A stretch of DNA of 64,000 nt, taken from NCBI GenBank assembly GCA_973895155.1, contig OZ316894.1:7216234-7280233 (forward strand). The letters are read 5' to 3'. The notes under the pieces were generated by a model that did no database searches, had not been told where the DNA came from, and was given only the letters and a program-made list of their open reading frames with translations. Source of the stretch: Marsupella aquatica. Its lineage: Eukaryota; Plantae; Marchantiophyta. Below are positions 7,827-60,720 of this stretch, in pieces. Position 1 is the stretch's first letter. Each line of letters opens with the position of its first letter. The position numbers and the translations under genes are program-made.

Positions 7827-8400
7827 GCTGAAGATTGAAGGCATGATACAATTTCTTGAGCAGAGGCCACAGTATTTCTGGAAAGAATGTATCATCCGTG
7901 GAGTGATGCAAAAATGAGGAAGGAAACAACCCACAATTCTCTGGATTTGCAAACGCCTTCATTGGAGTGTCATCAAGAAGGAGTGTATTAGTTTCATCGT
8001 ATAATCCACCATAACGTTTCCAAACAACCCTCAAATCCTTCAAATGAATATTTGCCTTTCCATCGGTAATGTCAGGCCTCTGGATTCCAGTATTGAATGT
8101 ATCTTCTTGTGTGAGAATAAACTTGAATTGCTCTTGCTCTTCTTGACTGAAGATCAAATGAATCATTTCATCCATCCTGGGTTTCCTTGCACAAGTCCAA
8201 ATGGCAACATCAAATAACAAAAAAGCTGCGATAAAGAACTCGTGAAGATGGGGTCGCTCAACATACATAAAGTTAAACCATCCATGTCTCCCTCAGTGGA
8301 CACCCTTGACACTTGTCGCACTACGGCGCAGTCCGGAACTTGGCGTTTTGACAGAATCCCAACACATTTTGTTGAGGTCAAGAATCAATAGCTTCCGTCT
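7827..8400 (-). pseudogene. FCP1/NIF (HAD-family) phosphatase-homology domain
   Basis: RRKLLILDLN at about 8370-8400 (frameshifted), then RPHLHEF..AF..FDVAIWT, LKDL..VW and NTLLLDDTP.K...NP.N in ORF 7777..8268. 3' end cut by the CACTA end at 7826. Confidence 0.8.
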
Positions 8401-8850
8401 GATCGGACCGTGAAGTGGAGGCAAGGGTCCTGCAAAGAAGGAACACCAATGTTAGAATTGTGGGAGATAAAACAGAGGAATGCTGGAGACGATCTCGAGC
8501 ATCACAAGTGAATGAACAACAGTCAACATCATACCTATTGTTGGTTGAAGGTCAGTAGTTGAAGAAATCTCAGGACATCTTTGGGGATTATTGTCGACGC
8601 ACTCCACAACTGATAAGGGTCCGCCTATTTTTGTGAAGGTAGACATAATAATTTAGACGGCTGAATTGCAGGACTGTTCAAACTAACTTGGGTTTCAACC
8701 TCACGTGCTGAAAGACCCAAATTCATCTAGAAGGTTATCTCCTAGTTGGTTTTGGATGTCCAAATTTATCCCTCCGGGAAGGGTCTCAACAAGAGCTGGC
8801 TTAGACCAAACTAGCACTAATTTGAGCTTATCCTTCCTATACTTTCTAGA

Positions 8851-9291
8851 TCAAATAATCTTCTCAGACTGCTCTATACTAACTTGTTGACCTTTTGACG
8901 GTCCATCAGTCCAAACATAATGAGTAGCACTTGCTTTGAGTGATTTGTAACCAGTTCTACCGATTTCAGTCCCCGGTTTGCTAACAAAAGGGAGAATTAC
9001 GGGGCTTCCAGTAGAAGAATCTGTGAAAACAAGCTTATTCTCTGAAGCGCAAAACATTTGGTCCAAGGGAGAGGACGATGCACCTGCCTCGTCCTGAGGG
9101 GGAGTATGGCAGCGACTAGCTTTCTTAGTAGAGAGAATCTCATCCAGTTGAGGAGGGCTTGGAATTGGTTGGCTAACTGCGTCTTGCAAGGTGGATTCCC
9201 AGCCAACATCCAAGGTTGAAGACTGTTGTTCACGTTGTGCGTCCCCAAGTGTCAAGCGGTTGACATTGGGTCTTGACACCAAAGCTGTCAC
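8851..9291 (-). pseudogene. Ser/Pro-rich ORF, probably a linker exon upstream of the FCP1-like domain
   Basis: 146-aa ORF on the same strand, between the MTase-like and FCP1-like regions after removing insertions. No recognisable motif. Confidence 0.3.
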
Positions 9292-10312
9292 TATTGGGTG
9301 CCAAAACTATCTCCTTGTACCTGAGGATCACGGAGGGATGTTGTGAAGGCTGGTATACACCGGTTTATCCCCTTAACGTTAGACTATCATAGCAAGACTC
9401 TGTCACACATCACCCAAGCTCAATCCCAAAGGACTAAGGTTGGGAATCAGCTCTTGCACTCATGATAGTTCTGGTGAGAAGGGGTCTTCATGTCGGGCCC
9501 GTACACACAGGGCCTAGCACTAGTACATTTTAGGGCCATTTACCGATATTTACACCATCGGACGCCTTCGGGAAAATGCGACGCCATTTTTGAGGTTTCC
9601 GATTCTAACTGCATCGCTCCGTCTGATACTCCCAGAATCGGATATGGACCATCGGACCTGTTTCAGACCACCCGATACCAATACTATCGGACATTGCATA
9701 TCTCCTGCAATCGGATACATTAGGTGTCCGATGTCACAAGAGCCGGAAGAAGCCTCTCCTTGCACTAGGTGAAGATCTATCGTCCGACAGTTGTCCGTAT
9801 GAACTTGCAAGGGATATTGCGTTAAAATTCCCATTGGGCATTGCGATGGTGGAATAAACGGATGTTCCGATAGTTTTGGTATGGGAATTTGACATATAAT
9901 TGGTATCGGAACATACGAAACGGAGGGATTCGGAAGCAATGGAGGGGTGCGATAGGAGAAGTATCGGAAGATTACTCGGGAAAGACCTAGCTTCATTGCA
10001 ACATTTGGTTTCTTGTGGGGATTTTTTCTGTTGGGGTTGAGGGTGGTTCTTGGGGGAATTTATGCAATACAACATAGAGGGATTTGTTGAAGATGTTGAA
10101 GAGGTTATTTGAAAGACAATGCCAATAGAAGTAATTAACACAAGAAGGATATATGGCCACAAAGGGTACTCAAACTCCAAAAGGGAAACATACCCCAAAA
10201 TGTACAAGAGTGATCCAAGTACTAGGATCACAAAAGTAAGCACATCCAACTCCTAATCTCGTCTAAGTCTAAGGCTACACAGTATGTCTCTATCTATCTA
10301 AGCTAGTCTAAG

Positions 10313-13300
10313 TCAAAATGGAGCATGTCGTCCCTTCCTCTTTTTGGAACGAGTCCCAGGTGGTGGGGGTACAATACTAGTCTGGGCAGGAGCCTGGGTG
10401 AATGGGGACTCGTCCATGGTGACTTGGTCCACAACATCTGGCCCCTGTGTAGAGGTCATAGGAGGCACTGGACCCATGGGCCCTAAGCGTTACTAATACA
10501 GGGAGGACGTGCGAACATCGCAAGGGTATTTTTAATGTAATGCAAACTAATTTTTATAATAGTTTTTAAAGTAGGCAACATCCTTGTATATATTCAGCAT
10601 AATATTAGTAATAAGGCTCTTATCAAATACATGTCACATTAATCTTATGCAAGGGTACCCAAAATGCCAAGTACACGCGTCACTATATGGTTGGCACACA
10701 TGTCATCACTTCACTTGCACACATGTTCATATAGTAAATCAGACATTTAATTATTTGTCGTCATAAGGCAAGTTTGGTTTCGTGGGCTTTAGGAACACTG
10801 AGAGGATAGTGCAGCCATGCTTGTCTGTATACTACAGGAAGAACTATAATTCTCTGGTACTAATTTTGTTTAACTATATAAAATATGTACCCTAAACAAA
10901 GGGCGTAACATACAAGTCCCCTATGCAAAATAAAGTCTTATCTATTTCAGTATGATATTTGCAATTTTAAAAATTCAAGGATGTTTTCAATTCCTTGAAA
11001 AACTATATTATAATTTATAAAAGGATAAAATTTAATAGGAAAAGTTAATATTTTTACATTAACAAGGGGATTTTTTTTGTGAACAAAAATATTAAGAAGG
11101 GGTACATGGGGGTGTCTGTTCTCAGGGGGGTTCACTTTATATAGTAAGAGTGAGGGCCCAGGGCACTGGACCCACGCCACCACCACCACCACCACCACCA
11201 CCATGTGACGCTAGGGAGTCATGGGAAGGTCCGCTCCCCCCACTTGCATGGCAAGTATGAAAGGAAGCTGCACCACCCCCACTAGCCCCGTTGCCAACGG
11301 ACTGCCGTGATGTACCACCCCCGCTCCCTCCTGAATGGCCAAGGGCAATATGAGCACCCCCAGTCTGGGCTGAAGGGTGAGAGACACCAACTCCACCGGC
11401 TGTACTCCCTCCTAACTGGCCAGGGGCAGGTCGACGACCCCCAGTGCGGCCTGAGTGGTGAGAGACAACACCGACACTACCTCTACTCCCTCTACTCCCT
11501 CCTGACTGACCCTGAGCACTAACATCGCCCCCAATGTGGCCTGAGTGGTGAGACACACCACCGACACTAGCTCTACTCCCTCCTGACTGACCAGGAGCAG
11601 TAACATCGCCCCCAATGTGGCGTGAGTGGGGAGAGACACCAGCAACACCACCACTCCCTCCTGACTAGCCAGGGGCCCTAACACCACCCCTTGTCAAGCC
11701 TGAGTGACGAGAACCTCCTGAGCCACCCCCATCTGCACCAGAGTGCTGTGAGCCTCTAGAACACCCTTCCCCATGAGGCTCTAATCGGCCAGACTCACCA
11801 ACAGCATGTCGCTCATCTCGCGACACATGCCGAGTGCCTCGAATATCAGCTCTGCCACTAGCCCGTGACTGGCGTCGGGGACCCTCACCACCTGTGCCAA
11901 CAGCCCGTGAGTCACGTCTGCCACTAGATCCAACCCCTATGGCTCTAGCTAGGCTGGTGAGGGGTCCCACTAGCACCACCCCTACTGGTCCTAGTATGTG
12001 TCACACGAACATCCGCTATAGGGCCACGACGGGTCGACTGAAGAGCCCTAGCACTACCCCTAACTGTATCGGACCGGTGAGGAGGGGGTATGGCCACAAT
12101 CCCCTCCTCTGGGTCCGATGACTCTGAATCAGATTCGCCGGATCCCCCACTGCTATGCCCTGAGCCCTCGTCCGCCGAGTCCTCACCCTCCGATCCCTCC
12201 TTGTCTAAGCCCTGCATATATCCAACCAACCACCCAAATTAGTATACGCTTTTTAGAAATAAATTTCAACACCCAATTAAGACATTGCATTAAAAATAAT
12301 CTCCTTACTGAACCCAGCTCCTCCTTCAAGTGAATCCGAAGAGCCCGTGGTCCTTGTTTCTTAGCCAACTCCCTCTCTTTTGGCAATATTGGTCGCCCAT
12401 GCTCGCGCTCCTGCCCCCCTCAAAAAATGCACCGGCAACCAAATTAGTCCCAATTAGTGCCACCGGGTCACACCCCAATTAGATCCACACTGGATCACCC
12501 CCAACATGTTTTAAAATGGTCAATGGAACCAACCACGATAATCCACAAGGGTAACCGTCAAAAATTTTGAAAATTCAAACTGTCCGATTACTTTCTGATT
12601 GTTTGTCCGATAGCATCAAGGTCGGATTGGAATCGGACACGACGTCCAAAAAAGCCATAGCAGTATTTCCGACTGTCCTTCCGATTCTATTACTATCGGA
12701 CCATAATCGGAAATAGGGCCCCGACAAAAAAAGATGGAGTTATCGATCGCATGCATAGTGCGCTTGCAGGGCCCGCACGGCTTGACAATAAGAGGGGACT
12801 TTGGGCCGGGGCTCTTCAGGCAAAGAAGGGCCTCAGGTGATCAGGTGAATGGAGGGAAGAGCTTGGAGAGAGGAGGTGGAGTCTACTTACAAATTCTGCC
12901 TTGAGACGCAGCGACCCGCCCTGCCCCATTCTGTGAGTGACTACTGGCCTGTTCTCAACTCAAATCAATGCCTTTTGCATATGTGAGGGAGGGTCCCCAA
13001 GCTGAATTGACTTTGCATCCCAATGTTGCAGGTTTTGATCAGCATGGCGGGTGTCAATAGTCTCCCCTGCCTGGGCCCTCACTGCAAGGACTTCTAGCTT
13101 AGCTTGCCAGTATCTCCTTGCCTGCCAGGCTCGAACCTGCAGCTCGGTCTCAATCCAAGCTGGCCATACCTCCACAGGAATATCATTTGGGCACCCTCTT
13201 TGCCTGATCACCTCCTCACTGTCCTTGCACTCACCAAGGTACTTCCTTAGCTTCTCCCTGATGTGATTCCTTCTGTCTGCAAGGGATAGACTGATTTTCT

Positions 13301-14033
13301 TGTTTAAGAACCTGTCATCAATGAATGAGCCATTGCAAAAACGTTCCTTCACCTGCTCACAAACTGTGAACTTCTCTTCTTCCTTTTTCTTCCCCCAGCA
13401 ATCTAACACTCCAAAATGGGATCTAAGTACTTGCCCAAGCTGACTCCTGAAAAGATTATAGCTCTTGGCCCTCGGAGCTCCTCCCTCATTCAAATAAATT
13501 TTTGGCCTCTTGCTTCTCTCCTCTGCTCGCAGCTTCTCCTCCTCCGCTCTTTTCCTATCTGCAGCCCGTGCCTCTCTACATAAGGCCTTCTCTCTCTCTC
13601 GTGGTGAGAGGGCCTCCACAGGTACAATCTCCTTCTCCTCCCTTCTCTTCCTCTTCTCTTTCTCCCTAGTACGCTGCCTCTCCTCAAATGTTTTCTGAGC
13701 TTCAACAAGAACAGTGCTCCTAGAAGAGTCTAGCAATCCTTGTGTCAATGCAGCCACCTTTTGCGCATGCTCTATGGAGAGCCCTACCTGCTTATGGAAA
13801 ATTGCAGCCATGATCTCCCCAAAGTCTTCTGATGGCCCTGCTCCATCCCCAGTAGCTCCTCCAGCCCCACCTTGTCCGGCTCTTGACCCTCCATCTCCAC
13901 CATCTCCTTGCCCTCCAGCTGTTCCTCCAAATCCTATTCCTGTCCCTGCTCCTGCCCCTCCCCCAGCCCCTCCATCGCTCCCCTCCATAGCCATTTGCTC
14001 TTCGCTGCCGTGAGCCACGCGCTTATTTTTCAC
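10313..14033 (-). pseudogene. CACTA accessory (TnpA/ORF2-like) multi-exon gene with Gly/Ser/His-rich repetitive C-terminal region
   Basis: ORF 12960..14033 continues (frameshift) to VTHRMGQGG..LKAEF|GTAAG. Exon near 12300-12400 ERELAKKQGPRALRIHL. Gly/Ser-rich exon 11140-12230. Last exon ends KKRKGRHAPF* at 10313. Homologues at 43928-46024 and 62723-63730. Confidence 0.65.
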
Positions 14034-14901
14034 AAAGACATGAACTCCCGACTGTTTTTTGATGCAAAGCCCGACTCAAGTGCGTTTGCACTTAGGTCGA
14101 GTGCCCTAAAAATGCTTCCGACTACTCATCCGATTCTATTTACATCGCAAATTCCCATTAAAACTGTATCGGAGATTGTATCGGATGAACATCGGACCCC
14201 TCCTGCGAAGCACTAACCTAAGGCTCTTCCGATATAGAGAACATGGTAAATGAAGTTGGTCTTTCTTTGGATGACACTACGTTGGTTCTATGTGTTGGCC
14301 AGGGGTTCTACGGATAGGGCGGACCATCGGAGCCGTGGTATCCCGAGTCACATGCATGATTTTGGAGGTGGTTGGTATGTATAAGGGTTGCGGGTTATTG
14401 TTAAAGGTTACTCCAAATTTTTAGGGTGGCATTTAATTTGGAGTGCCAAATACAATTTGACCTAGCTAACCTTATGCATCTTGCATTCGGAATTTTGCAG
14501 TTCCTTTTTGCGGAGGGTTAGGTTATTGCGATTATTTTGGGTCCATTTTTGCAATGCATCATGCACAGTGAGAGCCCGCACATCTGAAAGGTATTACCAC
14601 CTCTACAATGTGAGCTATATTTACTATGAAGCATTACCTATAATTACTATGAATTTATTGATATTGGTGTACCCCAATTAAGCTCAAGTGTACTTGTGCA
14701 GCAATTTCAGATTTGTCTTAGAATATAATCTACTAAAGGCCAAGATCCTAGTCGGCACTGCAAAGCGCGGGTCTCATTCAGGTATTATTGATATGAAGAC
14801 ATCTATATGTTTTTTTTGCCTTCATATTTATTGCATTGGTCTTACATATTTAATTCCCACAATGGCACATAAAAGGTTATTTTTGTATGGGTGATGGACA
14901 G

Positions 14902-15135
14902 ATGTCTTCTTCCGAGAGTTCAGAGTCGGATTCTGACTCAACCTCTTCATCTTCTGAGGGGGACATTCCTCCCCCCCCCCCTCCAAGGCTTCAATGTCCT
15001 CCTCCTCTAGGACCTATTCCATGTTGGTGTGTCCGATGTAAAGGCATGGTGGTTCGTCAAGCCTGGGAAGCCATTGAGCATATTGAGAACTATGGCAGAC
15101 ACGAGGGCAATTTACCAGGATATTCTACTCGCGAG
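14902..15135 (+). CDS. First coding exon of the CACTA-1 transposase/SET unit (Ser-rich, CxCxxC...H zinc-finger-like)
   Basis: MSSSESSES...PCWCVRCKG...HIENYG, followed by donor GAG|GTATGC at 15135/15136. Homologous exon at 41834..42047. Confidence 0.65.
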
Positions 15136-15233
15136 GTATGCACAATTAATTGCTCTTGGAGACATTGACATGTACAATTTGCCACATTGCACCCATACAT
15201 TTATTAATTGTTGGTTTTTTTGTGATTGAATAG

Positions 15234-16153
15234 GTGCCTTGTAGGACCCCTCCTCCATTGGTCTCTAATGACTTATGGGTAAATACGCTTTTGGCTGGTG
15301 CAAGAGAGTTGCTTGCATCATCATCAGCTCCCTCTCCATCTAGCCCCCCCGTGTTCAGCCAGAGAGTGTAGCAGTTCCATCTAGGGTTGGACGCACCTGA
15401 GCACGTTCCCAGAGACAACGTCGCCGTTATGAACCCTTGCCAGGCACTCATGAGATTGAGGAGCAAGTTGTAGACCGTACTCTTAGAGTGCCACCAGGAG
15501 AGGACTATGTGGAAGTGGAAGGGAGGTTGGGGTTGTCATATGTCACCGGGAAGGCATTGACAGTGTTGAAGGATTTCTTGTCTGATAGATTCAAAATACC
15601 CCCTGGCCTAACCACTGATACCCCTATCCACATATGGGGTCACCAATGGATAGTGAAGGCGTCTTCCCTTGGCCCTGACATAGGATTTGGGGTGTTTGCC
15701 TTGGAGGACATTGTGGTCCCGCCCAAGCCGTGGCCCCGAGGTTATGATGGTGAGCACCTATTTCCATACATTGGTCCTGTGTATACTTCAAAAGGTTGGA
15801 ACATTCTATTGCGCCAACACCCATCGTGGGGTGTCTATGCATTGCAAATGGATTCTGATCCAGATGAGCTCATACGGAGGCCTTGGCATTCTCGGATGAT
15901 TGATGGCGACCCTGTTCACTCCGATAATATAGCTGGGTACATCAATAGTACTCGTGGTAGAGGGAGAGGACTTAGGCCTAATTATGTAGAGTGGATTCAG
16001 ATATTTGGTCCACCTAGAGAGCCTTACTATGTAAAACATATGGATGATCATGTCATGACTGTAGCCATTACAACCATTAGGGCTGGCCAGGAGTTGTTTT
16101 GTGACTATGAGTGGGATAGGCCCAAGAAAGCATTGCTTTCTCGCCCCATGTAG
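15234..16153 (+). pseudogene. SET-domain (protein lysine methyltransferase-like) exon
   Basis: GFGVFALEDI, PYIGPVY, IDGD...NIAGYINST and IRAGQELFCDY motifs in ORF 15437..16153. Acceptor AATAG|G at 15233/15234. A stop and a frameshift lie upstream of the domain. Confidence 0.85.
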
Positions 16154-16367
16154 GGCAGACATATATGTATATATACCACCTTTTTGTTTAACATAAAATA
16201 CATGATACAGGTTTTCAAACTAAATTGGTTAGTTGTGTAAGTCAATCTTTGATCAAGGTTTGAAAGTATACTAGTAGAATGTGTAAAGAGAATTGTCTAT
16301 ACCTTTAAACACTTGTCTCATTGCATGTGGCCCTTCTAATATAATATGTATGTTTGTGAAATGTTAG

Positions 16368-18609
16368 AATGCATATGTTCAACCAGATATGGGGGTATTA
16401 TCACCAGCAATGCGGCAACACCTTGTTGAGGCCATGGGTGATTGGCGTAGGGCTCAAGCATCAGAGAATGAAGATGCCCCTCCTGAGCATGTGTCTAATG
16501 CCACCGAAGATAGACTTGAGGAGGAGAGGGCAATGGATGATCTTATGCACCAGTTCTATGACGTGGAGGATGGTGACCATGATATGGGTGATGCATTTCA
16601 TACCAATGCACATCCTCATGGTGACAATCCTTCACAAGGTTCTTCCTCTAGACAATGGGAGGAAGCTCGTGACCATGCGCAAACATGAAGTTTTGAGGGG
16701 TCACAACTATCTCGGCTCTCAGGAATAATGTTATTGTTGAACTTGCAGCAAAGACATGGAGCAAGCTAAGCAATCTCCTTCTTGATGATCTCTTCAGGAC
16801 CTTGCATAGTCATATTTTGCCAGAAGGGAACTGCTTGCCTAGTTCATGGAAAGCGGAAAAAAAGGTGTTGAAATCCATAGGCCTCAAATATGAAGTCATA
16901 CATGCTTGTGTGAATGGTTGTGTTCTGTTCAGGGGCGAACACAAAGATGCCACTACATGTCCTACATGTGACCAACCGAGGTATCGAGAGGACATGCTGA
17001 CTGGAAAAGTAGCACAGAAGGTCATGAGGTATTTTCCTCTTATCCCTAGATTACGGCACCAGTACCGATGTACAGAGTTGGCTGAGTATATGGTGTGGCA
17101 TTCCAAGAACCGGTCAGATATGAGTTCAGATCGGCCAACCATGCGTATGATGGTGGACTCACCTGCAAATAGGTTTGTGGAGGACCGATGGGGTGACTTC
17201 AAGACAGACCCACGTCATTTATGACTAAGTTTGGCATCAGATGGGATCAGCCCCTTTGCATTGGCCGGGAAGGCCCAACCATACTCAGTTTGGCCAGTAG
17301 TCCTTACAAATTACAACATCCCTCCATGGATGGCCATGAAGAAAGGTCATTTGCTGCTCTCAATGATTATCCCAGGCCCCAAGCAAGTAAAAAAGATTGA
17401 TGTTTACTTGGAACCATTGTTGGAGGAGCTTCAACAACTATGGAGGGGAGTGGATTGCTATGATGGTCGAGTGCTGACGGGTGGTTTACCTCATGAATTT
17501 AAATTAAAAGCCATCGTTATGTGGACCATACATGATCTTCCTGGTATGTTAAAATATACCTTCCCCAATATTATGCATGGTTTTTTAAGGTAGATAATAC
17601 ACTATAGGATAATGTTATATATAAAAGTTTGCCTGGCTATTGTTTAATGTATTGATTGTGTGTGTTGTAGGGTTTGGATATATCTTTAGGTTGCAGACAT
17701 CAGGATACCAAGCCTGCCCAACTTGTGGTCCTGATTTGGAGGGAGTGGCACGCCCTAAGTCTACCACCCTACGGAAGATAGTTTACATTGGTCACACAAA
17801 GTATCTCCCCCCAGAGCATGAATGGAGCCGTGACCCATTCTTATATGACACGGATGATGGCCAACCAGACACACGCCCTCAACCAGTGCCAAGGGATCCA
17901 CGCTATTGGAAGGAGGTATGGGATAGAGTGACAGACCCAGATGATCCCTTACCATTGGCCCGGTGTGGCATGACTCGTTTGTCTGCATTAATGTCAAAGC
18001 TGCCATATTGGGCTGAGATGCCAATTAACCATTTGTTTGACCCTATGCATATTGAGGGGAACGTTGGGAGGTCATTGATTCGCCATCTATATGGAGAGAA
18101 AGACAACAACTGGAGAGAGAGTTGTGAGGAGATGGGGATGCATGGTCCTCATGGTTTTTGGCCATCTATGGATCCCCCTAATGGCCCCCTTACTATTCAC
18201 CCTCCTTGGGTATTGACCAGAGGTGAGCGGATTGAGTTCCGCAATCGTATAGGGTCAATGAGGTTTCCTACGGGCTACGGGGCCAATCTGCGCAAGGCAT
18301 TTGGGGGACCAGACTGTCCACGTTGGCGAGCTTTCTTGAAGACCCATGATTACCATCGTCTACTACAACATGTCATTCCAGTGGCCATCATTGGATTGGG
18401 TAGTGAGGATCTTCATGATGCCCTATGGTCATTAGGTAAGCTCTTGAGGTGGGTGTGTCAAAAAGAGGTGAATGAGGATGAGATTGCAGCTATGGACCTG
18501 TTTGGAGTGGAGGTATTGTGCAAGTTGGAGAGGGCACTCCCTCCTTCATTCTTTGATGGCCAAGTTCACTTCCTCCTACACCTAGTGCGTGAGGTTGGCA
18601 TTGCAGGGC
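16368..18609 (+). pseudogene. CACTA TnpD/Tnp2-type transposase, 5' part (Transposase_21 + DUF4218-like)
   Basis: IHACVNGCVLF, ASDGISPF, SVWPVVLTNYNIPPW, WTIHDLP, DPMHIEGNV, LKTHDYH, PPSFFD. Intron 17544-17670. Several stops. Interrupted at 18610. Confidence 0.93.
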
Positions 18610-19398
18610 TGTGGTGCGTCCCATGGCTCCCTAAACCCAAGAAACCCCCCAGCTCAAGCCGATTCCCGCAGGTTTCGCGCTTGGCGAGGCCGTTTCCGCG
18701 GCTTAGCGGCATGGGACGCTGCTAACCTCCTCCTACTCTTACTATTAGCCTTTTACCCACATATACTGGACAGATCCTTCATCGGGTCATGAGATACGTA
18801 GCCGGCCTAATCTAGGCCTTCCCTTGTCTTCCTCTCCTTCTGGTTAGGTATGTTTGGATTCCGCCGCCGGAATGATCCCCAATAGGCTTGGTTAAGCCGC
18901 TAAGACCTCTCTCAGCTCGACACATCCAACTCTCACTCCCTTGTTTACTTTCCTTCCTTCTGGTAGATGTGGGCACTCTTCACACAAGTTAATGCGACAC
19001 ACAAATAGCAAAATGACTCCTTCTGACTGAGTCATACCATGCACTTGCCATACAAACAGTACATCTCATACACAAGTTCTGCGAACTGAGCCGTGAGGCC
19101 AACTCTATTCAGCTCTTAGGCATGAGGAAACATGAATATACACAAGGTCACGGTATGACTAACCGAGAGCTTCTCTTACTACTTGATCCCAGCCCGGCTG
19201 GTGCAACTAAAAACTTGCTAAAGAAGAGGCCCTGAGCTCCCCGCTGCCCAGGTACTTATCCTGGTAGTGGATCCGCCTAATTCTTTGCAGCATAAGCCTA
19301 ATCTACCTAACAGTAATCTACTTGCCCGAAACTACCTATGTACAGCAAGGCAGGAGCACAAGTGTTGCTCCTACCAGTGGAACCGCAATCCCACTAAG

Positions 19399-22335: not shown

Positions 22336-22341
22336 TCTTTT

Positions 22342-22359
22342 TGGCGCCGCTGCCGGGGA
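22342..22359 (+). promoter_or_regulatory. Primer-binding site, Athila-type (tRNA-Asp-like)
   Basis: TGGCGCCGCTGCCGGGGA, 6 nt after the 5' LTR. Confidence 0.85.
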
Positions 22360-25933: not shown

Positions 25934-25945
25934 AGGACACCATTT

Positions 25946-26422: not shown

Positions 26423-26486
26423 TGAAGAACATGTCACTCGCTTCTGATTCAATTCGGTCATGTCTTGTGGGGACACGGCGAAATTT

Positions 26487-27886: not shown

Positions 27887-27891
27887 TTCTT

Positions 27892-42047: not shown

Positions 42048-42149
42048 ATCCACTGCCACATTACATTGCATGTAGGGCATGATTAGGAAAAATTAGGCCA
42101 TATATAAAGCGATTTTTAAAAAAATGAACTCAAAAAACAATTAGGTTGG

Positions 42150-47908: not shown

Positions 47909-49777
47909 ATAGGAGGCTCGAGATGATCTCTATCTTCCTTCATTTTTAGGACAGTTGAGTCGACAGTTTTATGCACTATAGTCTGACATGTTCCAATGCC
48001 ACATCTCATCCGGGGAATTTAAAAGAGATTTCAACCCCAAGAAATCTAAAAAGAGAACACAATAGTCAGGAACTACAAGAGGCTCGAGATGATCTCGAGC
48101 CACCATCTGTTTAAAAGAAAAAGACAAGGGCTCAAGATGATCTCGATCCTCAGATATATCAATTGAGGTTTTATTCCATTGCATATCATAAATCAGTCAA
48201 AAATGATCCAATGTCACCTATTCGACCACATTCAAAACCCTCTAACTCAATGGTTTGTCATCTTCACAAACGAGTTGGAGGACTAAGAAAGTGGTCCAAA
48301 AGGCAATCTTGGATCACATTGGATAGGATATTAGTAATTGAAGTAGATGACATGGAGTCCTTCCAACTGGAAGAAATCGGCCAAGGGATACGAATGAACT
48401 TAATGGAAGATGGTGATGAATATATTTGGCTCGAGACAATCTCAAGCCTAACATCTCAAACGAGTGATCCGAATATCATATTCAACAATGAACATCATAT
48501 TCAATCAATGATTAAAATCCACTTTCTCCATTGACTTCTCATACCCACAAACCCGTTTGGATGTCAATGATCATAACAAGTTGGAGGGTAGAGAAGTCCC
48601 TGGAGGAAGGAAATTTTAGATATTTTGGATATGATGTTCACTTTTGAATTATAAGAGCTTGAAGAAATCTGACTAGGTAACATGCAGGAAATGCATATTG
48701 GCTCGAGACAATCTCGAGCCTAATGCCACTTACATCAAATGCAAAATCAATTGATAGCACAAACTTTTGAAGCAAAGTAATGCAGAAAACATCACTTAGC
48801 TCGAGATGATCTAGGAGAATTATAAGAGCGCGAAAAAATCTAGAGGCAAGAGGACTCAAGGAGGCAAGGGATGCGAGGAGGCGAGGGAGGCGAGGAGGCG
48901 AATGTGCAAATGGGGAGTTCAAACCCCCTGAAGCCACTATAAGCCCCTCGGGGTCGGCCTTGAGGGCCGTGCCAAGCGTGCCACGGGCTCGTGCAGGCTG
49001 CCACGCAACCAGCTGGGTGCGTACAATCATTATTACGGTCACACGTGTTGTCATTATTGTTATCCATACTTCAGCCCTACCGCGAGTTTAGCCGTGCCAC
49101 AAGTTCAGCCAAGCTGTCTGATTGGCCTTTTTGTCAGTCAGGATTTTATATATTGCTTCTCTTTGCTCTCCAGCGGGTCATTCTTCTCATTTCGTTTCAC
49201 TATTCGCTTGTTGCTCCCTCTGCCTCTCTCTGCTCTCTCTCTCCCTCTCCCTCTCCCTCTCTTTGGCTCTAGATTTCTGCTCTGATCTCTTTCTATCGTT
49301 CTTTTTAAGGGTTGTGGACTCTGCGTTTGTGTTTAGGATACGTCGAGACATTATCATTTTAAGCTCTGAAGGAGGTCTAAAATAATTGAGCTCCTATCTT
49401 TTAGAAAACCAAACCTTTTCAACTTATACTAATGTTGGTCAAAATCCATTTGGAAGCCTTTTCCCTCTATTTGATGACCTTTTAGAAGCTATTTCTCAGT
49501 GTCTGGAAGTAAATTGGGAGCCTACTTTCTTAATTGCACCAAATCATACCTCTAGATCATCTAGAGCCATTTATATGTTCTTATTTTGGGTGGCTTATTA
49601 TTCATAATAGTATCTTTGTCAAATACAGTGTCTTTTTTGGCTCGAGATCATCTCGAGTCATAAGTTTGATCCTCAAAATTATTAACTTTTGCCTTCTAGC
49701 TAATCGTGCATTCGGTTGTCCTTCTTCTAATTGGGTTTGTAGATAGTCGGAGGTATAGAATCTGAATTCACTATTTA

Positions 49778-52700
49778 GTGAGATTTCATATTCTACCTCA
49801 AGATCGTTTTAAGCTAAATACTTCTGAATTTTTACATATTGGTGTTTTTGGTCCCTCTTCTACCTCGAGATTGTCTCAAGGTAGAAGAGTTTCTTATTTT
49901 CTCTATCACACAGTTTTGTGGGATAAACTTCTACACTTGGGTTTTTTGGTTTGCTTTTGTAGTCACTTTACTTCGAGATCATCTCGAGGTAGCTACATCC
50001 AATGGTTTGGACCACGTTTTCAAAATGGGGATTTTCTTTTGAGGGGACGAGGTTTGCCTTGTATCAACGGAGTGGAAGTTGCTTGCGAGACCGTCCTCAA
50101 GGTTGATCCGGGTGACTCAGTGTGTAATGTTGATTTGGGAAGTAATCGTATTCGAGTTCTCATTGAGAAGTGCTATGAGGGATCATGGGAAATTCCTTAC
50201 CCTTTGCCGCCGATCAGGACCCTGTTTGATGCTGTCAACTCCTGCATTATTTGGGATGCCTCTTTTGCATATTTGAAGTCACAGTCAACTCCAGCAACAA
50301 CACAAATGGATGCCTCTTGTTCTACAAAGGATACGGTTCTCGGTTTTGTACCAGAAAAATCTTTGGTGGGAAGTTTGGGAGACTCGATTATATCCAGCAA
50401 TGAAGTCGAGCTCTGGATCGGCAATCAGATTGTGGCTCGTGGATTTGTATTCAAGACGAATCCCAATGAGACCTGTCACAATGAAAGACTTGGCACTTCT
50501 AGGATTAGTGTAAAAATATGTGAAGTTTTTCAAGGAAGGGAGAGGTTACCCTTTCCTCACGCTGGAGCCGATACCGTTCAGGAAGCATTTCACACTTTTG
50601 TATTCTGGACTTTAAAGGATGTTACTCGGAGGAGTTCTTCCCAGGATATACTAAACGACCTGTCCACACGGGATGTTTTTGGAAATTATAATTTCAAGGA
50701 TTATAGTTTGCGTTCTAATTGGATGACCAAGGAGGTGGAATTGTATGCTGAGGATAATCGAACCAAAGTGGGGGTTGGCATCATCACAGTTCCTTTCGAG
50801 TCACATGCAATTGATGATGAGGTTCTTGGGCCAGATCACGTTGGGGTTGCGGTCACACGCGTGATTGACCCCCTATTTTTCCCAAATATCTCCCAGGAGT
50901 GCCTGGTCTTGTTAGGTGGGCCGTCCGTTCACTTTTGCTGATATCAAGGGGTATTTTTCTTCTGGATCTCATTGAAGAGGTTTCTCCGAAACCAATTATT
51001 GATGGTCGAGATCATCTAGAGGTAGATATGAAAGGTGACACTGAGTTTTCAAAGCGCCCGTATAATTTCATCAAGAGAACGAAGGTTAACCTAGATGAAA
51101 AAAGGAAGAAGCACTTGGAGTCTCGGGCGATACTGAAAATCACAGAGGAGGAAATTGACTCCATCCAAAGAGAAGGTTGTTGTAAGTTGAAGTGTTGCCT
51201 CAACATGCCGAGAGAAGACCTACAGGCGATAAGGAGGGAATACCATGGGATGTCAAGCGACAACAAAACCAGTCACATTCTCACTCTTTTTGGCTGTAGG
51301 GAGAAGGAAGTGGAGACAAAAGGATATTTTGTTGTAAGAAGTAGACTTGTTTGCAAGGGTGCATTTATTAAAATGCATGGATTCAGCACTGCCAAGTATT
51401 ATGATTACAAAAATTAATATGAAGCAGGTTGCACCATTGGATTCCACGGAAACAAGGGTTCACACAAGACACGGGGAAGCACCTGGCACACTCGTGCTTT
51501 GTTGGAGTCCATTATAACCCAAAACAGAGAACCCATGCCGCATCTTCCCTATGGAGGGTCTCATGGTACTGACACGGTTGAGTACAGACTTCCATCTTGT
51601 TTCACGAAGAAAAAGATTTTTGAGGAGGTATACTCAAAAATGGAATTAGATGGCTACGTGAAGGTGAGTGAAAACACTATGTATAAACTCTGGAGTGAGT
51701 CCTTCATGAATTTTGACTTTCACAAGGGAAGTGCATTTCCAAAGTGTACACTTTGCACTAAGTTCAAAGATCAGTTGATGCGGGAGAAGAGAAAGAAAGA
51801 GCGTTTAGAGATTGAGGAAAGAAGAGCTCGCCATCTTCGTGAGCAAATGTCTAGGAGATATGTTTACTATGCTCATAGGGTTCTTGCGAAGAAGGATCCT
51901 GAGAACTATCTTTGCATTATACATGACAAGATGGACCAAGCCAAGACATGGATCCCTAGCTAGGTTGGTCCCCACTCCTAAATCATTGTCTGGTAGTGGT
52001 CAACCGCTCCCCATTGCACTCACTGGGATGTTGACCCATGAAAGGGATCCCGGAGTGTATGCTCACTTCAGTTTCACTGGGCTTTGGCCGGGAGATGCAG
52101 ACTTCATAGTGATTCATTGGCCAAGTGCCTTAGAGATCTGGAGGATTACAAGGGGGGAAAATCTGGAGACCTCCTTGAAGGATTATATTGGGCTGCAACG
52201 AGGCCAAATTTTCAATCTCTTTCGGACTTTGAAGCATTTCTCGCAGGTTACTTAGAACCCAAAAAAGTCTCAATTGCTAGATTTCAAGGAGCTAAAGATG
52301 ACCAAGATCTTGGGTTATCAAATGTGGTGGATGACGACTTTGGTGTTGATCCCAAGGCTACATCTACCTCTTTCAAACCATTGCCAAGGCACCTGACCTT
52401 GCAAATGGATAATTCAGGGAAAGATAACAAAACCAGTACGTGTGGCATTTTGCAGTGAGCTTGTTAGTAGAGGGGTTTTTGAAACAGTGCAGATGTCGTT
52501 TCTCATGGTTGGTCACACCCATGAGGATGTCGATGCATTGTTTTTGAAAGTATCCAACCAAGTGAAGTACAAGGAGGTTTCTACCCTCTTGGGGTTGATG
52601 GCTGAGATTTGGGAGTGTGAAAGCATTCATCCTGTCCCACGGTTGATCCAAGAGGTTGCAGCTTACAAAGAGTTTTTGAAAACTTTCAAGGTAAAAGACA

Positions 52701-53402
52701 TAGAGGGTCACTCAAAACCAATGGCATTTCTTTTCTCTATGAGAGATAATGTTCCAATATATCAATACAAAGCACATGTGAAACAATCTTGGTACCCTCC
52801 AGCCGGAAGGTCCATTTGGAGAACTGATTCCAACACCAATGCTCTCATTTTACCAAAAGGTCAACCGTTTGAAAAACCCATCTCCGGGGATGTACGAGGC
52901 AAGGTTGAAGAAATCATCCCATTCCTTAATTGCTATATTGATTTCTTGAAGAAAAATTGTAAGGATGAGACCTCTACAGCATATCGTGAGTGGTTTCTTT
53001 TGGTGAAATATTGGAAGATGGTGGTGCAAGTATTATCTGGGGAGCTTACAATTGAAGGGGAGGCAGAAATACAGTTAGCATTGACATATGAGTTATGGCC
53101 AAAAACCAACCACGGAACTGGTTACAAGGTTAATAGTACAGGAACCTCTGAACCATTGGGGGAGCCTAGTAGTAGTACACAAAATCCAGAAATGGTGGAG
53201 CTTCAGAATGAGTACCTGGAAGAGATGGATGATCAAGCTGCAACATTTGTTGGCGCTCGACACGAGCGAGAACTTGCACGTTGGATTCCTCTGCAGGACA
53301 TTCAAGAGGGTCACTTTGTATTTCTCCGTCCAGAGGATGAATGGGAAAAGAAGAATGGGAAAGAACGTTTCTGGTTGGTGAGAGCTTTGGGTGTTGTGGA
53401 CC
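49778..53402 (+). pseudogene. DDE/D-type transposase-like protein (DUF7869-like / Sola-like core) with three N-terminal Tnp1-like repeats
   Basis: F.KCTLC, IIHDKMDQ, LTLQMDNSGKDNK and FLMVGHTHEDVDALF motifs across ORFs 49778..53407. Several frameshifts. True start uncertain (homology begins near 50010). Confidence 0.75.
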
Positions 53403-55685
53403 TGTGATGCCTAGCCAGGAATCACTAGGCCAATTTAAATGATAAAATAAGGAGTAAACCCTGGAAACACATTATTATAGTAGCAAAAAGATGGAAAATA
53501 TAAAGAATTAAGGGTGGCTATGGAACCCGAGCCGAGGCTGGAAGTACAAATATCGGGGGAGAGAACATGATTAGGGTTAGGGCGTGCTAAGTGTTGGCGG
53601 CTATAGGTAACTAACAGGAAGGAAGACCAGTCAGGGAGGGGTAAGGATCGATCGCAAGGAATGGTGGCTCATTTGCAAGCACGAACTAAGCAAACGACTA
53701 TGGGAGGCCAACTACTATCCGCTGCTCAGGCAAGCACTCGGGGTGGAAGCAGATACCGACAATCAACTCAAGAAGGGTATGAGCAACGTCAATCAAGCTG
53801 CTCATTTTTGGGGATGCCATTTAGAACGGGAAACTGAGTACATTGGGACCTACGAGGATGAAGAATCGGAGAGAGCCGCTCGAGAATGGCAGGAGCTCGC
53901 TCAACTGTGGGAGCTGCAGAAGTCTGCCTTCTTAGGAGGAGAACTCATCACAGCTGAATTCTTGTGGACGCCTACTATCGACGAACTTGACGATCTTCTA
54001 TTTTGTGAAGACAGAATAGTCAGCATCCAGGAAGCCATCAACCGCTGCAACAACATACACTGGGAGTTGAAGGGTAGCACGGAGGGGTGGAGGAAGGCAA
54101 CCGTGCTAGGAGAAACATCCACGGCAACCGCTATGAAGAGGAAAGGGAACATCAATGAAGAGACCACCCCTGCGAAGAGAACAAGGTCGGCGGCACCAAG
54201 GAAGCCAGCCGAGCAAGCAGGGAGCATGAGGCAGGAAGAAGTCAAAGAAGAGGAGGTCAACCCCATCAATGTCGTTCCGACAAGAGATGATACTTGGAAA
54301 GGCTGGGCGGCGACCCTCCCCGAGGAAGTGCAATTACACTTTGCACGTGAAGAGGATGCATGCTTTACGGCTATGCAGACTCGGAAGTACCAAGGCTTCA
54401 TGGCCGGATCCGGCTTGGAAGCCTTTTGTGAAGTTACCATGGCTGGAGCCGGAGGTGCCGGATTCAGATTTATTAGAATTTGTGGGATCCTAGGAGCCCG
54501 AGTCCAATTCCACAAGGGTGCATGGGAAGGATTTCTATCTCACTCCCCGAGTAATTGCCGAAGCGTTTGGCTTGCCGATGGGCAATAAGACCAAAGTTGA
54601 TACCAGGAAGACCTTGCCTGACAAGGAGTTCCGGTCATTCCCAGGGCCATCAACAAAGAATGGCTTCTTCTGAAACACCTGCACCAACCCACACATTGGG
54701 GAGATGATCGATTTCTTGCGGGTAACCATGTATTGCAACTTGCCGAGGCCAGAGATCGGCAAGGCACAGGTTTACTTGGCGGAGAGGCCAGACCCCAGCC
54801 GGGACTACAACGAATACCTCCTCACCCAATTGAAGAAAATCTTGAAGGAGGAACAGCAGGTGATCGGCAAGGGAAGCATGTCCCGGCTTGGCTATCATAT
54901 GCCGTTGTTGTGCCGGTATGCCCGAAGTCAGATATTTGCCCCGGTACTTCCCCTACAGGCAAGAGCACCAAAGGAGGTTCCGGAACAAAGGCCGGCAACA
55001 GAGAAACCGACCCAGCCTGACAGTCCTACAATCAAGCAGGTGTTTAGGCCGAGGAAGGAAGACTTGCCGATGCAGCAACCAGGCATGCAAAATCTGCTGA
55101 AATTGCTGGAGAAGGAAAGGAGAACGACAATGGCAACGGGACCGGTACAGAATACTGCTCCCGAAGTTGGCCTAAGCCGACTTACCAGGGAAAACCCCTT
55201 TACCGGGGCCAAGGAGAGAGGGAGGCCGGAACACGAGCCGGGAGTCCGAATGTATGTAGGAGCCTCAAGTCCCAAAGCCAAGCTAAAGCAGCCCGTAGCT
55301 CTTGGTCGCAACAGAGAGAAGAAGAGATCAACCTGGAAGCCGGAGGAGGAACCACGACCCGTGATCTGTGAGGCCGTGTTCACGGCAAAACCAGGAGAGC
55401 AGTGGAGGGAGCCGGTAGTCCAAGCCGCGGAGGAGGCAGTAGAAGGCTACGACAATGATGACTCCGGCTACAAGTCGGACCATCATGTTCCAAGAGTAAG
55501 GACCTGTGGCAGGTTCATCCCCACTCTTCCAAGAGTAGTTTGAGGGGACCCCACCCAGCAAAGCAGCCCCGAATCTCCCCCACCAGATGTCGCTCCCCCG
55601 AGCTTTGACGGCATAAAATAGATGGCACAAGAGTTTCAGGAGCGACTCAGGGAGGAAGAGAGGGCAGCCCTGGCTAGGGAGAAAG

Positions 55686-57652
55686 CACTAGTACATATTT
55701 AGCTGATTTCCGATGCTCAATTTTTGCAAACAATCGGCGTCCGATTCTTTTAGAATCGGAAATTCCCATTATCACAAAATGGCAATATGCCATACTCTCG
55801 GCTTCGGATATCTTCATTTCCGATGTAATTAACAACGGAACCTTTCCGATGCGGTAAAAAATGGATCATATCCGTTACAAACTACATCGGATCCCCTAAC
55901 AAAAAATTTGATTGATATGTCCGATATTTTTTGTAATGGAAATGATGTGCGTTTCAATATTGATCGGAAAAGTTCCATAGTTGATAAGAACGGATATTAT
56001 ATCCGATTGTGGTAAAATGGCAAAGTCAGATGTTGAGAGAATGGGAAAGTCCGATGCTGAGAGAATGGGAAAGTCCGATGCTAGGAGAATGGGAAAGTCC
56101 GATGCTAGTAGAATGGGAAAGTCCGATGCTGGGAGAATGGGAAATTTTCATTTTGGCAAAATGACAAATTCCTATTGTGTTAGATGGGGCATGTAGTTGC
56201 ACCGACATACTCTTCCTAGAAAAGAGGATAAAATCATTCTTGCATGTTTGAATGACTTCATACTTGAGGCAAATGGACTTAATTGAATGTTGTTCTTGCC
56301 TCCTTCCAAGACCCCAAAATATTGTTCCCTTTTGGCAATATTTGCTCAACATGCAAAATCAAAATTTATCATCTAAAAGGAGATTGCTTGTCCCATGTAG
56401 TCTTTGTTGCAAGTCCAACAACAACATAGTTGATGAAAGATGAGACAATCGGGAGCTGCCCTTGACGCCAAGGCTTTGGAAGGACCAAAATATTAATCTT
56501 CCATAACTAATTAACTATAATGATCTCATGTCAAGTTGGATGGAGGAGGGCTTTACTATTCACGATTGACCCCAAATTTCTATTGATTGCTCCAAGGGAA
56601 TGTAAGAGGGTAATCGTAATTATAGATCACTCGATGCAAACATGCAATATCATGATAGAGCAAAATTGGGATTTATTAGTCTAATGCCACACTTTTGTGG
56701 CATAATCACTACATTGCCACTCTTTTTCTTGTATTTATCACTCTACCTCTCGTTTGAGTCATTGGTTAAGAAAAGTAACTCAAGTTAACTACCTAAGATC
56801 CGTCGTTGAGATTTCTTTTGGTCTTCCCATTGGATGGTCGTCGCTTCCCTCACGGTTACATTTTGAATCCTTAGTATAGTTTGCGGAGTCGGCTAATCCA
56901 TTTCTCCTCCCCTCCATTTCTCTATCACCATAGTCGAGGCGCATTGACTGCGTCTTTGCTCCATCCTTGCCACTATCGTTGCGTCCTCATTTCCCCGGCC
57001 CGGGCTGTGTTGTCGTTGACCCTGGCTGCCTCTAGCTTGGCTGGGGCTGCATTGTTGCATGTTTCCTGTTGGCCTCTCCAGACTCTGCCCAGCTTAGGTC
57101 CAAATTATGGGTCTTAATAAATTTAGAAGTGTATAAAATCCCTAAACACTCCAAGTCAAACAATAAAAGTGTTAAGCTTGCATGTACATTGTGAGGGATA
57201 AGAACCACAAAGTTAAGCTCATGTTGGAGGAATAGCAATTGGGATGGGTGACCACTTAGTTGAGGAATGAAGAGTTGAAATGTCAAAGGAGATGGGCACC
57301 TCGCTCATGGTTGCAAAATGAAAGTAAATATACAAAGGAAGAGATTGGTGACCTGAGCACCCCGCGTCCGCTCCAATGTGTATCCCATTTTCATTGTTTT
57401 GCTCTTTCCCATTCTCCCAGCATCGGACTTTCCCATTCTCCCAACATCAGACTTTCCCATTCTCTTAGCATTGGACTTTCCCATTCTTTCAGCATCGGAC
57501 TTTCCGATTTAAGTCCAATTGTTGATATCCGATACTTTTATCATGGCATGTTACGATGCCAGCATAATCGGATGTATGGTTTTTTCATATTTTGTTTTAC
57601 AAAGACGTCCGATGTGGAGAGAATCAGAAAAATGAGGTAAAATGTACTAGTG
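55686..57652. mobile_element. Non-autonomous CACTA derivative, 1967 bp
   Basis: CACTAGTACAT / ATGTACTAGTG ends. TSD AAG at 55683-55685 and 57653-57655. 24-bp tandem repeats at about 56020-56145, inverted at about 57403-57508. Decayed TnpD fragment (KSICLKYEVIQTCKNDFILF) on -. Confidence 0.92.
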
Positions 57653-58346
57653 AAGTTTACCAGGGGGAGAATGGCCAGAGCACATCAGGCGGCTTGTAGA
57701 AAAATGAAGCAGCCCTCCAGCCACGATAGAAGAAATCCACAAGGCGGCTTGGGAACAAAGGCAGCGATGGTTGATGCCGATGACTTCTACTCACTCCGCC
57801 TATGCTAAAGAAAGAGCCATGGAGTACGGGGAGATGTGTGGGGAACTTGCGCTCAACATCTTTAGGGAGGAGTTGGAGCAGGGACCCTTTTTCCATAGGG
57901 AGATGTTGGAGAAGCGCCGATTAGAAGAAGTGGTGGCTTTGGAGAGAAGCAAGAAGGACGAGGTCATCCGTCGGCTTAGGGCAAGGGAAGCCGAGGTAGA
58001 AGACCTAAAGGCAGCCAAGAAAGCCCAAGATGAGCTGCGGATTAAGCGGCATGAGCTAAACATCATGCAGGGACAATTGGATATCGCGCAGTCAGATAAT
58101 CAGATTATCAAGGATAAACTAACTCGGACCCAAGGAGAGTTGGCCAATGCGATCAAGGAGAAGGAGAAGTGGAAGCGAGAGCTGAGAGATGCAGAGGAGG
58201 CCCACATACCAGCCAACAACCGGGCCATGGCGGAGACCCAGAGAAGGGAGAGGGTGTTGAAGGGGAAGCTCGAGGATATCCGCGGAGCCCTTGAGCAGAA
58301 GGAGGCCGAGTTAGGGAAATCCTATCAGGCGATTATTGTGCTACGA

Positions 58347-58643
58347 CTTGGGGGTTTTACTTCCACAAAAATGACATATCACGTGCGACGAAGGATCGGG
58401 TCATTTTATTGGTTCTAAGGGAAGACTTAAGAATTTTTGTAGAAGAACAATAGGGTCTTTTAAATTCAATTTTGAGACTTATAAGAACATTAGGGTCTTT
58501 TTAATCCAATTTTTAGAATATTCCAAGAATATTCCAACTTTATAGGGGTTAAAAAATAATATATTTTTCTTACATTTTAGGGGGTCCGAGGCCTAAAAAC
58601 ATCGCAGGCGATGGGGAGGTCCCCATATAGTGAGACCCCTGAG
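58347..58643. mobile_element. MITE-like insertion, about 297 bp
   Basis: Absent from copy 1 of unit A. Flanked by the direct repeat TGCTACGA (8 bp; up to 11 bp depending on boundary). Imperfect TIRs CTTGGGGGTTTTAC / GTGAGACCCCTGAG. AT-rich. Confidence 0.75.
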
Positions 58644-60382
58644 TGCTACGACTGGAGCTTGCATCCCTAACGGCCAGCTTCAAGGCCGACCTCCATGAGA
58701 AAGACGACCAGCTCGACCAGACTTATGCCAAGATGAATAAAATGGAGTCTGAGGTCGTAACGGAGCTCGACAAGGAGCTAAGAGCAACCCAGGAGGAGAG
58801 GGCTACCTTAAAAAAGGAGCTAGAGGAAGCCCAGAGAGAGTTGGAGGAAGCCCAGAAGGAGCTGGAGGAGGCGTGCAAGGACCTGGACAAATTGCAGGAG
58901 GAGTTGGAGGAAAGCACGCGGAAGATGGAGAACTTACAGCGGCGAGCCGACAACCAAACAGAGTGGCTGAAGAAACAGGCCGCAGTATTTAAGTGCTTGG
59001 CTCCTCAAGTCCAACTCCAATAGGGGCAACCAAGTCACTTGCCAGGAGTAGTGCTGGCCGAAGGACAAGCCGAGACACTTGCACTGGTGCCGGAGGTAAG
59101 TGGCAAGGGGAAGGGACCAACTGCCGAAACAAGGAAGAAGAAAAAGGAAAAACCTTTTGGGTCAGGGAGTAACATGGCTTCTCAAGCCGTCGTGACCAAG
59201 GAGGTAAACCCGGCACCAACCTCAAGCAGGGTCACAATAGAGGATCCAACTGTCCTACAAGGCGGGGATGGCAAGGGCGAAGCCGGAATGCTCAGTGATG
59301 AGGCCGGTGTACCAAATCCACCACTAGAGCAGGTTGGGGAAGCCATAGCCATATCGGAGGCCGTGGCCGATGCTGAGGCCAAAGCCGAGGGGGGACCCAG
59401 TCAGGCCGACGGAGAGTTGACTCGGTCCGGAGCAGTTAATCTGTCAGAGGACGGACCTATGGTAGTGGCTGCGGAGGAAGTGTTGGGGGCGTCCATTGAG
59501 GATCAACCACCACTACCATGACGGTGGTACGTGGCGGACCTGGAGGGAGGAGGCGTGAGTGGGCAGGGCGGGCTCAGATCTCCAAGTTTAGAATTAGGAT
59601 CAGGACTGGGAGGCGGCCCTGACACTTAGCTTAGTGGGATTGCAGATCCACTGGTAAGAGCAATACTTGTGCTCCTACCTCGCTGTACATAGGTAGATTA
59701 CGGTCAGGTTAGATTAGGCTTACGCTGCAAGGAATTGGGCGGATCCACTGCCAGAATAAGTACCTGAGCAGCGGGGGGGTTCAGGGCCTTCTTCCTTAGC
59801 AAGTTTTTAGTGCACCAGCAGGGCTGGGATCAAGTAGTCAAAGAAGCTCTCGATTAGTTATGTTGTGGCCCTTGTGTATATTCATGTTTCCTCATACCTA
59901 AGAGATGAATAGAGTTGGCCTCACGGCTTAGTTCGTAGATCTTGTGTATGAGAAGTATTGTTTGTATGGCAAGTGCATGGTATAACTCAGTCAGAAGGAG
60001 TCATTTTGCTATTTGTGTGTCACATTAACTTGTTTGAAGATTGCCCACATCAACTAAGAAGGGAGTAAACAAGGTAGTAAGAGTTGGATGTGTCGAGTTG
60101 AGAGAGGTCTTAGCGGCTTATCCAAGCCAGTTGGGGATCATTCCGGCGGCGGAATCCAAACATACCTAAAGGAAGACCAGGAGAGGAGGACAAGGGAAGG
60201 CATAGAAGAGGCCGGCTATGTATCTCATGACCAGATGAAGGATCTGTCCAGTACATGTGTGTAAAATATTAGTAGAAGGAAGATAGCAGCGTCCCATGCC
60301 GCTAAGCCGCAAAACCTGCGGGAATCGGCTTGTGCAGGGCGGTTTCTTGGGTTCAAGGAGCCATGGGACGCACCACAAGACC

Positions 60383-60720
60383 CAAACCATGAAGTTCCTT
60401 CAGGAGACTTGCAATGCAATGAGAATTCTCCTACTAGTACACGGTATGCTCCTATGTTCCAAGTGCAATGGTGGAGGCCTAAACATGGTAAGTATGATGC
60501 ACCGGATCACGTGCGATATTCACATTGCTTTCAGACCACTAAGACTTGGGAGGTGGATCCTGGGTTTGACAGTGCCACTGAACGTTGGCAATTTGCTAAT
60601 TCTGCTATGTATGGATTCAAGTCACGCTCTAGAGAAGAAAATATAATTGATAGAGGTTTGACCATTCCCAAGAATGTTTAGAAAACACTCAAAACCTACA
60701 TGGAAGGGATTGTTGAGTAA
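60383..60720 (+). pseudogene. C-terminal end of the transposase-like gene (completes a BAH/Tudor-like beta-barrel candidate)
   Basis: In frame with ...FWLVRALGVVD after removing unit A. Contains MFQVQWWRPK. Premature TAG at 60679-60681. Confidence 0.65.

Follow-up and report, generated by a model that had tools for sequence, protein, structure and literature searches.

A 64,000-nucleotide stretch of the genome of the liverwort Marsupella aquatica (contig OZ316894.1; hereafter the window, with positions counted from its first nucleotide) carries what we tentatively interpret, with a probability of about 0.42, as the decayed member of a multi-copy family of plant transposons whose cargo protein acts as a self-specific anti-silencing or licensing factor by binding palindromes within its own element. 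A DUF7869 transposase gene lies head to head with a cargo gene that would encode a DUF3723/ParB-like domain together with a beta-class methyltransferase fold devoid of the usual catalytic motif. The cargo product would bind the palindromes as a dimer, would still bind S-adenosylmethionine (SAM) and would shield the element or displace host methylation, thus acting other than as an ordinary DNA methylase; its methyltransferase domain may have come from bacteria or phage. The family is likely a cut-and-paste element of liverworts and, as a DNA transposon family that carries cargo, is real and apparently undescribed. No description of the element was found in the full-text literature, a coverage outside which most subscription papers and Repbase fall, and the accessible part of a survey of eukaryotic amino-methyltransferases describes no such plant transposon clade (PMC4738411).

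The cargo gene of this copy (copy 1) is encoded on the minus strand and is interrupted by two insertions (9250..33957 and 35931..46811). All pieces named by the original prediction sit at its coordinates and, as it had proposed, splicing out the insertions rejoins both cargo junctions in frame (NPG|MVLA and PSSGGLG|DAQREQ). The 5' part (46812..47908) encodes a PH-like N-terminal domain, a Lys-rich linker and the start of a domain named here after its GQH motif (42% identity to the relative P0012 over 366 aa). The remainder of this DUF3723/ParB-like GQH domain (35511..35930, 56–69% identity to P0012) contains one frameshift and ends at a splice donor; the donor CAG|GT follows the GQH exon in both copies found in the window, and 6 of 7 relatives extend to the same F/Y-Q/E-V position at the end of this exon. 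It is followed by an intron remnant with two palindromes (35351..35510), a helical domain plus beta-class amino-methyltransferase fold (34113..35350; VNPRAKP, DFFSGG; frameshift near 34570), the start of an acidic linker (33958..34112) and, beyond the second insertion, the linker end with a conserved C-terminal segment that closes on GSFST and a stop codon (8704..9249; 41% identity to P0026 residues 773-901, E 1.6e-20; 30% to P0036). Judged by its sequence, copy 1 is a pseudogene, with frameshifts, a stop at 34110-34112 and about 90 codons lost from the helical region. Nearly all other contigs do not share the stop (39592 of 40292 depth in run X1 differs at 34112).

Intact relatives align in order across the split pieces of copy 1: P0012 maps to 47848-46814 and 35926-35508, P0026 to 35350-34233 and 9090-8704, and the transposase relative P0001 to 50093-53401 and 60355-60717. 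With the middle piece as query, HMMER found 31 matches, 22 of them at E values up to 1e-10. Since P0058 holds the GQH, helical, methyltransferase and C-terminal segments in a single open reading frame (ORF) of 1009 aa, the fusion genuinely exists and was not produced by removing the insertions. Intact relatives occur in Calypogeia and Riccia; Calypogeia fissa accounts for 2 of 7 matches to the first cargo exon and is also the source of P0027. The relatives are only 24–52% identical. The methyltransferase region is covered by contigs from four runs of three organisms, the majority of them 90–99% identical (2283 in run X1); their depth gives no copy number, and by this sequence coverage the region behaves as a repeat family. 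A word-based search with the helical/methyltransferase piece found none among 515 candidates, an atlas search with the same piece yielded no score of 0.8 or above, 17 and 90 pattern matches of the cargo to viral and metagenome contigs, respectively, yielded none confirmed by alignment, and P0058 had no plasmid match.

A second copy (copy 2, 1-6331) keeps the head-to-head layout, with a cargo gene on the minus strand (1..2913; N-domain, GQH domain, intron and helical domain, running past the window edge) and the 5' part only of a transposase gene on the plus strand (4926..6331; 45–53% identity to copy 1 in tblastx segments). Both genes are about 50% identical between the copies and the position of the intron donor is common to both. 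The recurrence of this layout bears out the earlier claim of a transposon family whose cargo gene diverges from the transposase gene, and cargo and transposase very probably form one element. Alternatively, the cargo could be a host gene that was captured and is carried passively by a Pack-type element, or it could lie beside the transposase gene by chance; its spliced eukaryotic gene structure, the lack of detected termini and a linkage known from this window only would fit such an origin. We consider it improbable, given that both genes diverged equally with layout and intron position kept, that a single palindrome motif is spread over both genes of copy 1 and that the region behaves as a repeat family.

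Only profile positions 163-208 of the Pfam family N6_N4_Mtase match the window (34113-34595, minus strand; E 8.2e-7, 29.6 bits versus a cut-off of 26.7), and the original prediction had recognised the SAM-binding end of such an enzyme. Structure searches extend this to a complete beta-class domain in the predicted structure. P0058 residues 52-745 were modelled from a 12-sequence alignment, with pLDDT (predicted local distance difference test) values mostly of 60–90 over the methyltransferase, and model residues 414-685 align to CcrM 12-258 with a Z score of 15.6 and a root-mean-square deviation of 3.5 over 206 residues. RsrI (Z 14.8), MboIIa (14.7), PvuII (14.1) and N4CMT (13.9) follow; the top 20 matches are all beta-class amino-methyltransferases or MT-A70, and the next match has Z 5.6. 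The model is circularly permuted, with the motif IV half preceding the motif I half. The SAM-binding motifs X and I are present, VNxxxK, DFFS[GS]G and R[ED]C[FI] are kept in long relatives, and a profile match links the domain to M.RsrI (E 1.6e-6), although DFFSGG is one residue shorter than the DFFAGSG of RsrI motif I. Profile comparison with three phage methylases supported the SAM half alone (probability 95%) and did not place motif IV.

The catalytic motif of these enzymes is altered throughout the family. At the motif IV position, where the strand was picked by secondary-structure order and was readable in 23 of 31 matches, Asp occurs in 23 of 23, Phe next to it in 22 of 23 and Arg as the fourth residue in 18 of 23; copy 1 reads N-F-G-R at 34948, with Asn where relatives have Asp. 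The pattern [DSN]PP[YFW] is found in 0 of 34 sequences, so that the caveat already attached to the prediction, that no DPPY/SPPY-type motif was visible, holds family-wide. In amino-methyltransferases, the target base is held in position by the carbonyl of the motif IV Pro and by stacking of the Tyr (PMC10406627), and changing SPPY to APPA abolishes the activity of N4CMT (PMC8885841). Because these residues hold the target base and their loss kills N4CMT, a standard methylase is less likely, and the sequences make a non-catalytic or re-purposed domain more likely. With an invariant Asp at the motif IV position, activity may nevertheless have been kept. The cargo might thus be an active atypical amino-methyltransferase that writes N4-methylcytosine (4mC) or N6-methyladenine (6mA) on its own palindromes as a self mark, which would block host 5-methylcytosine (5mC) or time transposition. 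We regard this as unlikely: the whole beta-class fold is predicted, the Asp and the SAM-side motifs persist across relatives of 24–52% identity, both palindromes contain C and A bases, often CG, and a liverwort uses bacterial-type 4mC enzymes (10.1101/2021.02.12.428880), but Pro-Pro-Tyr is absent throughout, motif I is a residue short of that of RsrI, and inactive methyltransferase domains borne by a transposon have a precedent in DIRS1 (PMC4738411). Quite unlikely, in our view, is the more elaborate version in which an active, rewired amino-methyltransferase, joined to a ParB-like clamp, places 4mC or 6mA on the palindromes of its own subfamily to escape 5mC silencing, each subfamily evolving its own site by analogy with restriction-modification systems.

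The GQH domain is strongly conserved, SGQH being invariant in 8 of 8 sequences and followed by Ser (Leu in copy 2). By eye we take it to follow the ParB N-terminal pattern, but without the Arg after GxH. The ParB/Srx nucleotide-binding motif contains this Arg (GxxR/GxHR), which ParB and DndB share; no Arg-containing nucleotide-binding motif occurs here, as SGQH is not followed by Arg. Language-model scores of 0.95–0.96 to DUF3723 clusters (179–195 of 256 features; the score is uncalibrated for protein parts) are accompanied by a similar score to an unnamed cnidarian cluster; the Pfam hidden Markov model of DUF3723 (PF12520) gave no match to the domain. The proposed ParB relationship is borne out in part: the DUF3723 language-model match and a DndB match (E 0.0067, in 2 of 8 members) speak for it, no ParB protein is among the listed structure matches, and Foldseek gave Noc only at E values of 1.4–1.6. 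The domain is poorly modelled in both models (pLDDT about 40–70), and it had no phage match and no meaningful sequence match in the PDB. DUF3723 is a conserved cargo family of Starship elements, of unknown function, and ParB is unmentioned in the accessible text of either Starship source (10.1101/2021.12.13.472469, 10.1101/2025.02.28.640899). The N-terminal domain in a relative's model has weak PH/PTB/FERM matches (Z 4.0–4.6).

The transposase gene of copy 1 (49766..53402, plus strand) is frameshifted and continues, past an insertion at 53403..60377, with its C-terminus at 60378..60680 (plus strand; 39% identity to P0001 residues 1125-1247, E 4.5e-22). Its putative DDE-like assignment rests on a Pfam DUF7869 match (52397-53404, plus strand; E 4.5e-25) and three acidic motifs (IIHDKMDQ, LQMDNSGKDN and GHTHEDVD). 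The motifs are kept in relatives, the first matched by pattern in 4 of 7 and reading LIHDKMDQ in the others. With its Q-x-DN and GHT motifs in a large transposase, it presumably resembles Sola-type DDD transposons. Riccia sorocarpa provides 5 of 10 transposase matches. Comparison with viral contigs gave 0 of 27, no sequence match was found in the PDB, and a full-text search returned no paper on DUF7869. Scanning 52 of the 62 upstream ORFs of ten distant transposase loci revealed only an integrase and one weak match. Other genes adjoin DUF7869 transposases: an ORF with the motif ELWSGVGS lies directly upstream at L047:6190-7353 and L049:7115-8116, without Pfam or PADLOC match, and OTU protease and Tudor-like ORFs are adjacent at L039:2424-2942 and L028:7122-9248. 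We take ELWSGVGS to resemble motif I of cytosine-C5 methylases, and the ORF may be a second methylase-like cargo in the DUF7869 transposase clade.

Each copy carries its own palindrome, and both motifs were defined from the same sequences in which they were counted. Palindrome A (CTCGAGA-N3-TCTCGAG) has 14 sites with up to 2 mismatches in copy 1 (11,456 bp), whereas 46,222 bp of insertions and copy 2 each have 0; the mean in 200 Markov simulations is 0.015. It runs through both genes of copy 1, with 7 of the 14 sites in the inter-gene region (47909..49765), a likely divergent promoter. Palindrome B (GGACTGGGA-N3-TCCCAGTCC) has 17 sites in copy 2 (up to 2 mismatches) and 0 elsewhere; its arrays (600..4868) lie at 600-940 in the intron, at 2784-2912 and at 4173-4868, partly as 27-bp tandem arrays. 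The palindromes are thus subfamily-specific and lie mostly within introns and between genes. A blind scan for at least three identical palindromes flags both copies. A third palindrome, GGGATCC-N2-GGATCCC, is present in three copies in the right flank (61389-61570) and may be a subterminal feature of this element or part of another one. The distant DUF7869 transposase loci L020, L026, L003, L006, L054, L058, L063 and L064 each have an array of their own, made of palindromes of 14–22 bp and mostly upstream of the gene.

Several results weigh against the favoured reading, with the cargo as the palindrome binder. Besides the circular definition of the motifs, the blind scan flags 1 of 3 insertion segments, by a three-copy palindrome, and 8 of 67 distant DUF7869 loci, some of them redundant (shuffle null, 1 of 80). 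Because no cargo relative was found at any of 80 distant transposase loci, the transposase is a real alternative binder. Cargo-transposase linkage is seen solely in the two window copies, no terminal inverted repeat (TIR) or target-site duplication (TSD) was found for the element, the right flank having been scanned for TIRs, no ParB is among the listed structure matches of the low-confidence models, and an active but unusual enzyme would account equally well for the conserved Asp and SAM-side motifs. The palindromes may accordingly be transposase sites. The cargo would then act independently of them, helping synapsis, the choice of target or transmission in the manner of a ParB-like clamp or a chromatin factor, a role also suspected for the DUF3723 proteins of Starships. 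Palindrome arrays lie upstream of related transposases where no cargo is seen (L020, L026, L003 and L006), and the similarity of the GQH domain to DUF3723, a conserved Starship cargo family, is consistent with such a role. We nevertheless hold it rather unlikely, since most of these contigs are short or distant, so that cargo could be missed, the window palindromes occur also in cargo introns, far from any likely end, and the GQH motif has Ser where ParB and DndB have Arg.

A NIF/FCP1-like (HAD IIID-like) gene lies downstream of the cargo gene on the same strand (7827..8646, minus strand) and likely has one intron, with a palindrome; Pfam NIF matches at 7780-8289 (minus strand; E 1.4e-13). The phosphatase motif of FCP1/NIF proteins is DxDx(T/V). 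Decayed copy 1 reads DLNKM instead, DLN replacing DxD, though the domain match is strong. The original prediction had placed this domain in the cargo protein, which the relatives do not support: all five long relatives checked end 2–20 residues past GSF/GSH, where the frame in the window stops too, inspection by eye revealed no in-frame splice joining the GSF and NIF exons, and a separate frame opens at 8646. The domain thus probably belongs to a separate downstream gene, a third gene of the element known from one copy; its membership is probable because it shares the strand and its likely intron contains palindrome A.

The window is a nest of plant-type transposons (CACTA and long terminal repeat (LTR) elements), and its CpG is depleted to about 0.3–0.8 of expectation. 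The insertions in copy 1 are not part of the system. At 35931..46811, a CACTA element (TSD ATT/ATT; Transposase_21, DUF4218, SET) interrupts the cargo gene, as does a TG..CA element at 9250..33957 (TSD CCAAG/CCAAG). The latter harbours three further insertions, namely a CACTA at 9518-31740 (TSD TAG/TAG), a second TG..CA element at 18610-30211 and an LTR retrotransposon at about 20946-27887. A suspected junction near 33585-33825 was abandoned after the TSD of 9250-33957 came to light. The transposase is interrupted by a TG..CA element at 53403..60377 (TSD GGACC/AGACC) with a CACTA nested at 55686-57652. The retrotransposon has 1.39-kb LTRs that are 99.9% identical, and its scanned ORFs include gag and protease-like ones but no reverse transcriptase, which suggests a recent and likely non-autonomous insertion. 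The elements at 18610-30211 and 53403-60377 are two copies, 81–87% identical, of a TG..CA element about 5 kb long. They have 5-bp TSDs, lack paired LTRs and contain long ORFs that match no Pfam family; they are possibly very long solo LTRs with coding capacity. In two different CACTAs, an ORF with a SET domain adjoins the transposase (15401-16150, plus strand; 40897-41724, minus strand; Pfam E 5e-6 and 8e-6, above the cut-off), pointing to transposon-borne lysine methyltransferases. Copy 1 is cut on its left side at 7826 by a CACTA right end (6323-7826, 72% like 46649-46811) whose left-end partner was not found in the window; a deletion or rearrangement joins this right end to the shortened copy 2.

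The closest parallel is VANC of the Arabidopsis VANDAL elements (Mutator-like), an accessory gene beside the transposase. Its short target motifs are subfamily-specific and are located within introns and upstream of the transposase gene; some form tandem arrays, and the motifs turn over through the formation of tandem repeats (PMC5735166). The placement of the palindromes resembles that of the VANC motifs. The transposase belongs to another family, the motifs here are palindromes known from sequence alone, and in place of the DUF1985/DUF287 of VANC there is a methyltransferase fold with a GQH domain. With CcrM, M.RsrI, M.PvuII, N4CMT of bdelloids and MpDN4MT1 of Marchantia, the cargo shares the predicted fold, the catalytic half before the SAM-binding half; it differs in having D-F-x-R in place of D/S-PP-Y and in being preceded by fused PH-like, GQH and helical domains. 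The cargo methyltransferase is also transposon-borne, whereas host genes encode N4CMT and DN4MT1. DIRS1 likewise carries an amino-methyltransferase domain with catalytic substitutions on a eukaryotic mobile element (PMC4738411), but as a PCIF1-derived group-2 domain of a retroelement polyprotein rather than a beta-class domain in a separate gene of a DNA transposon. In Starships a similar domain is conserved as eukaryotic DNA transposon cargo, but these are fungal, use tyrosine recombinases and have no methyltransferase fusion described in the accessible text (10.1101/2021.12.13.472469).

Few transposon-encoded counter-silencing proteins are known, and the visible candidate target sites, which differ between subfamilies, would make this family a directly testable second counter-silencing system. 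The finding also suggests a route by which bacterial-type amino-methyltransferases may spread in liverwort genomes, and it gives a handle on DUF3723, a Starship family without known function. If the cargo is active, its catalytic motif would be new and the transposon would be a eukaryotic element that marks itself.

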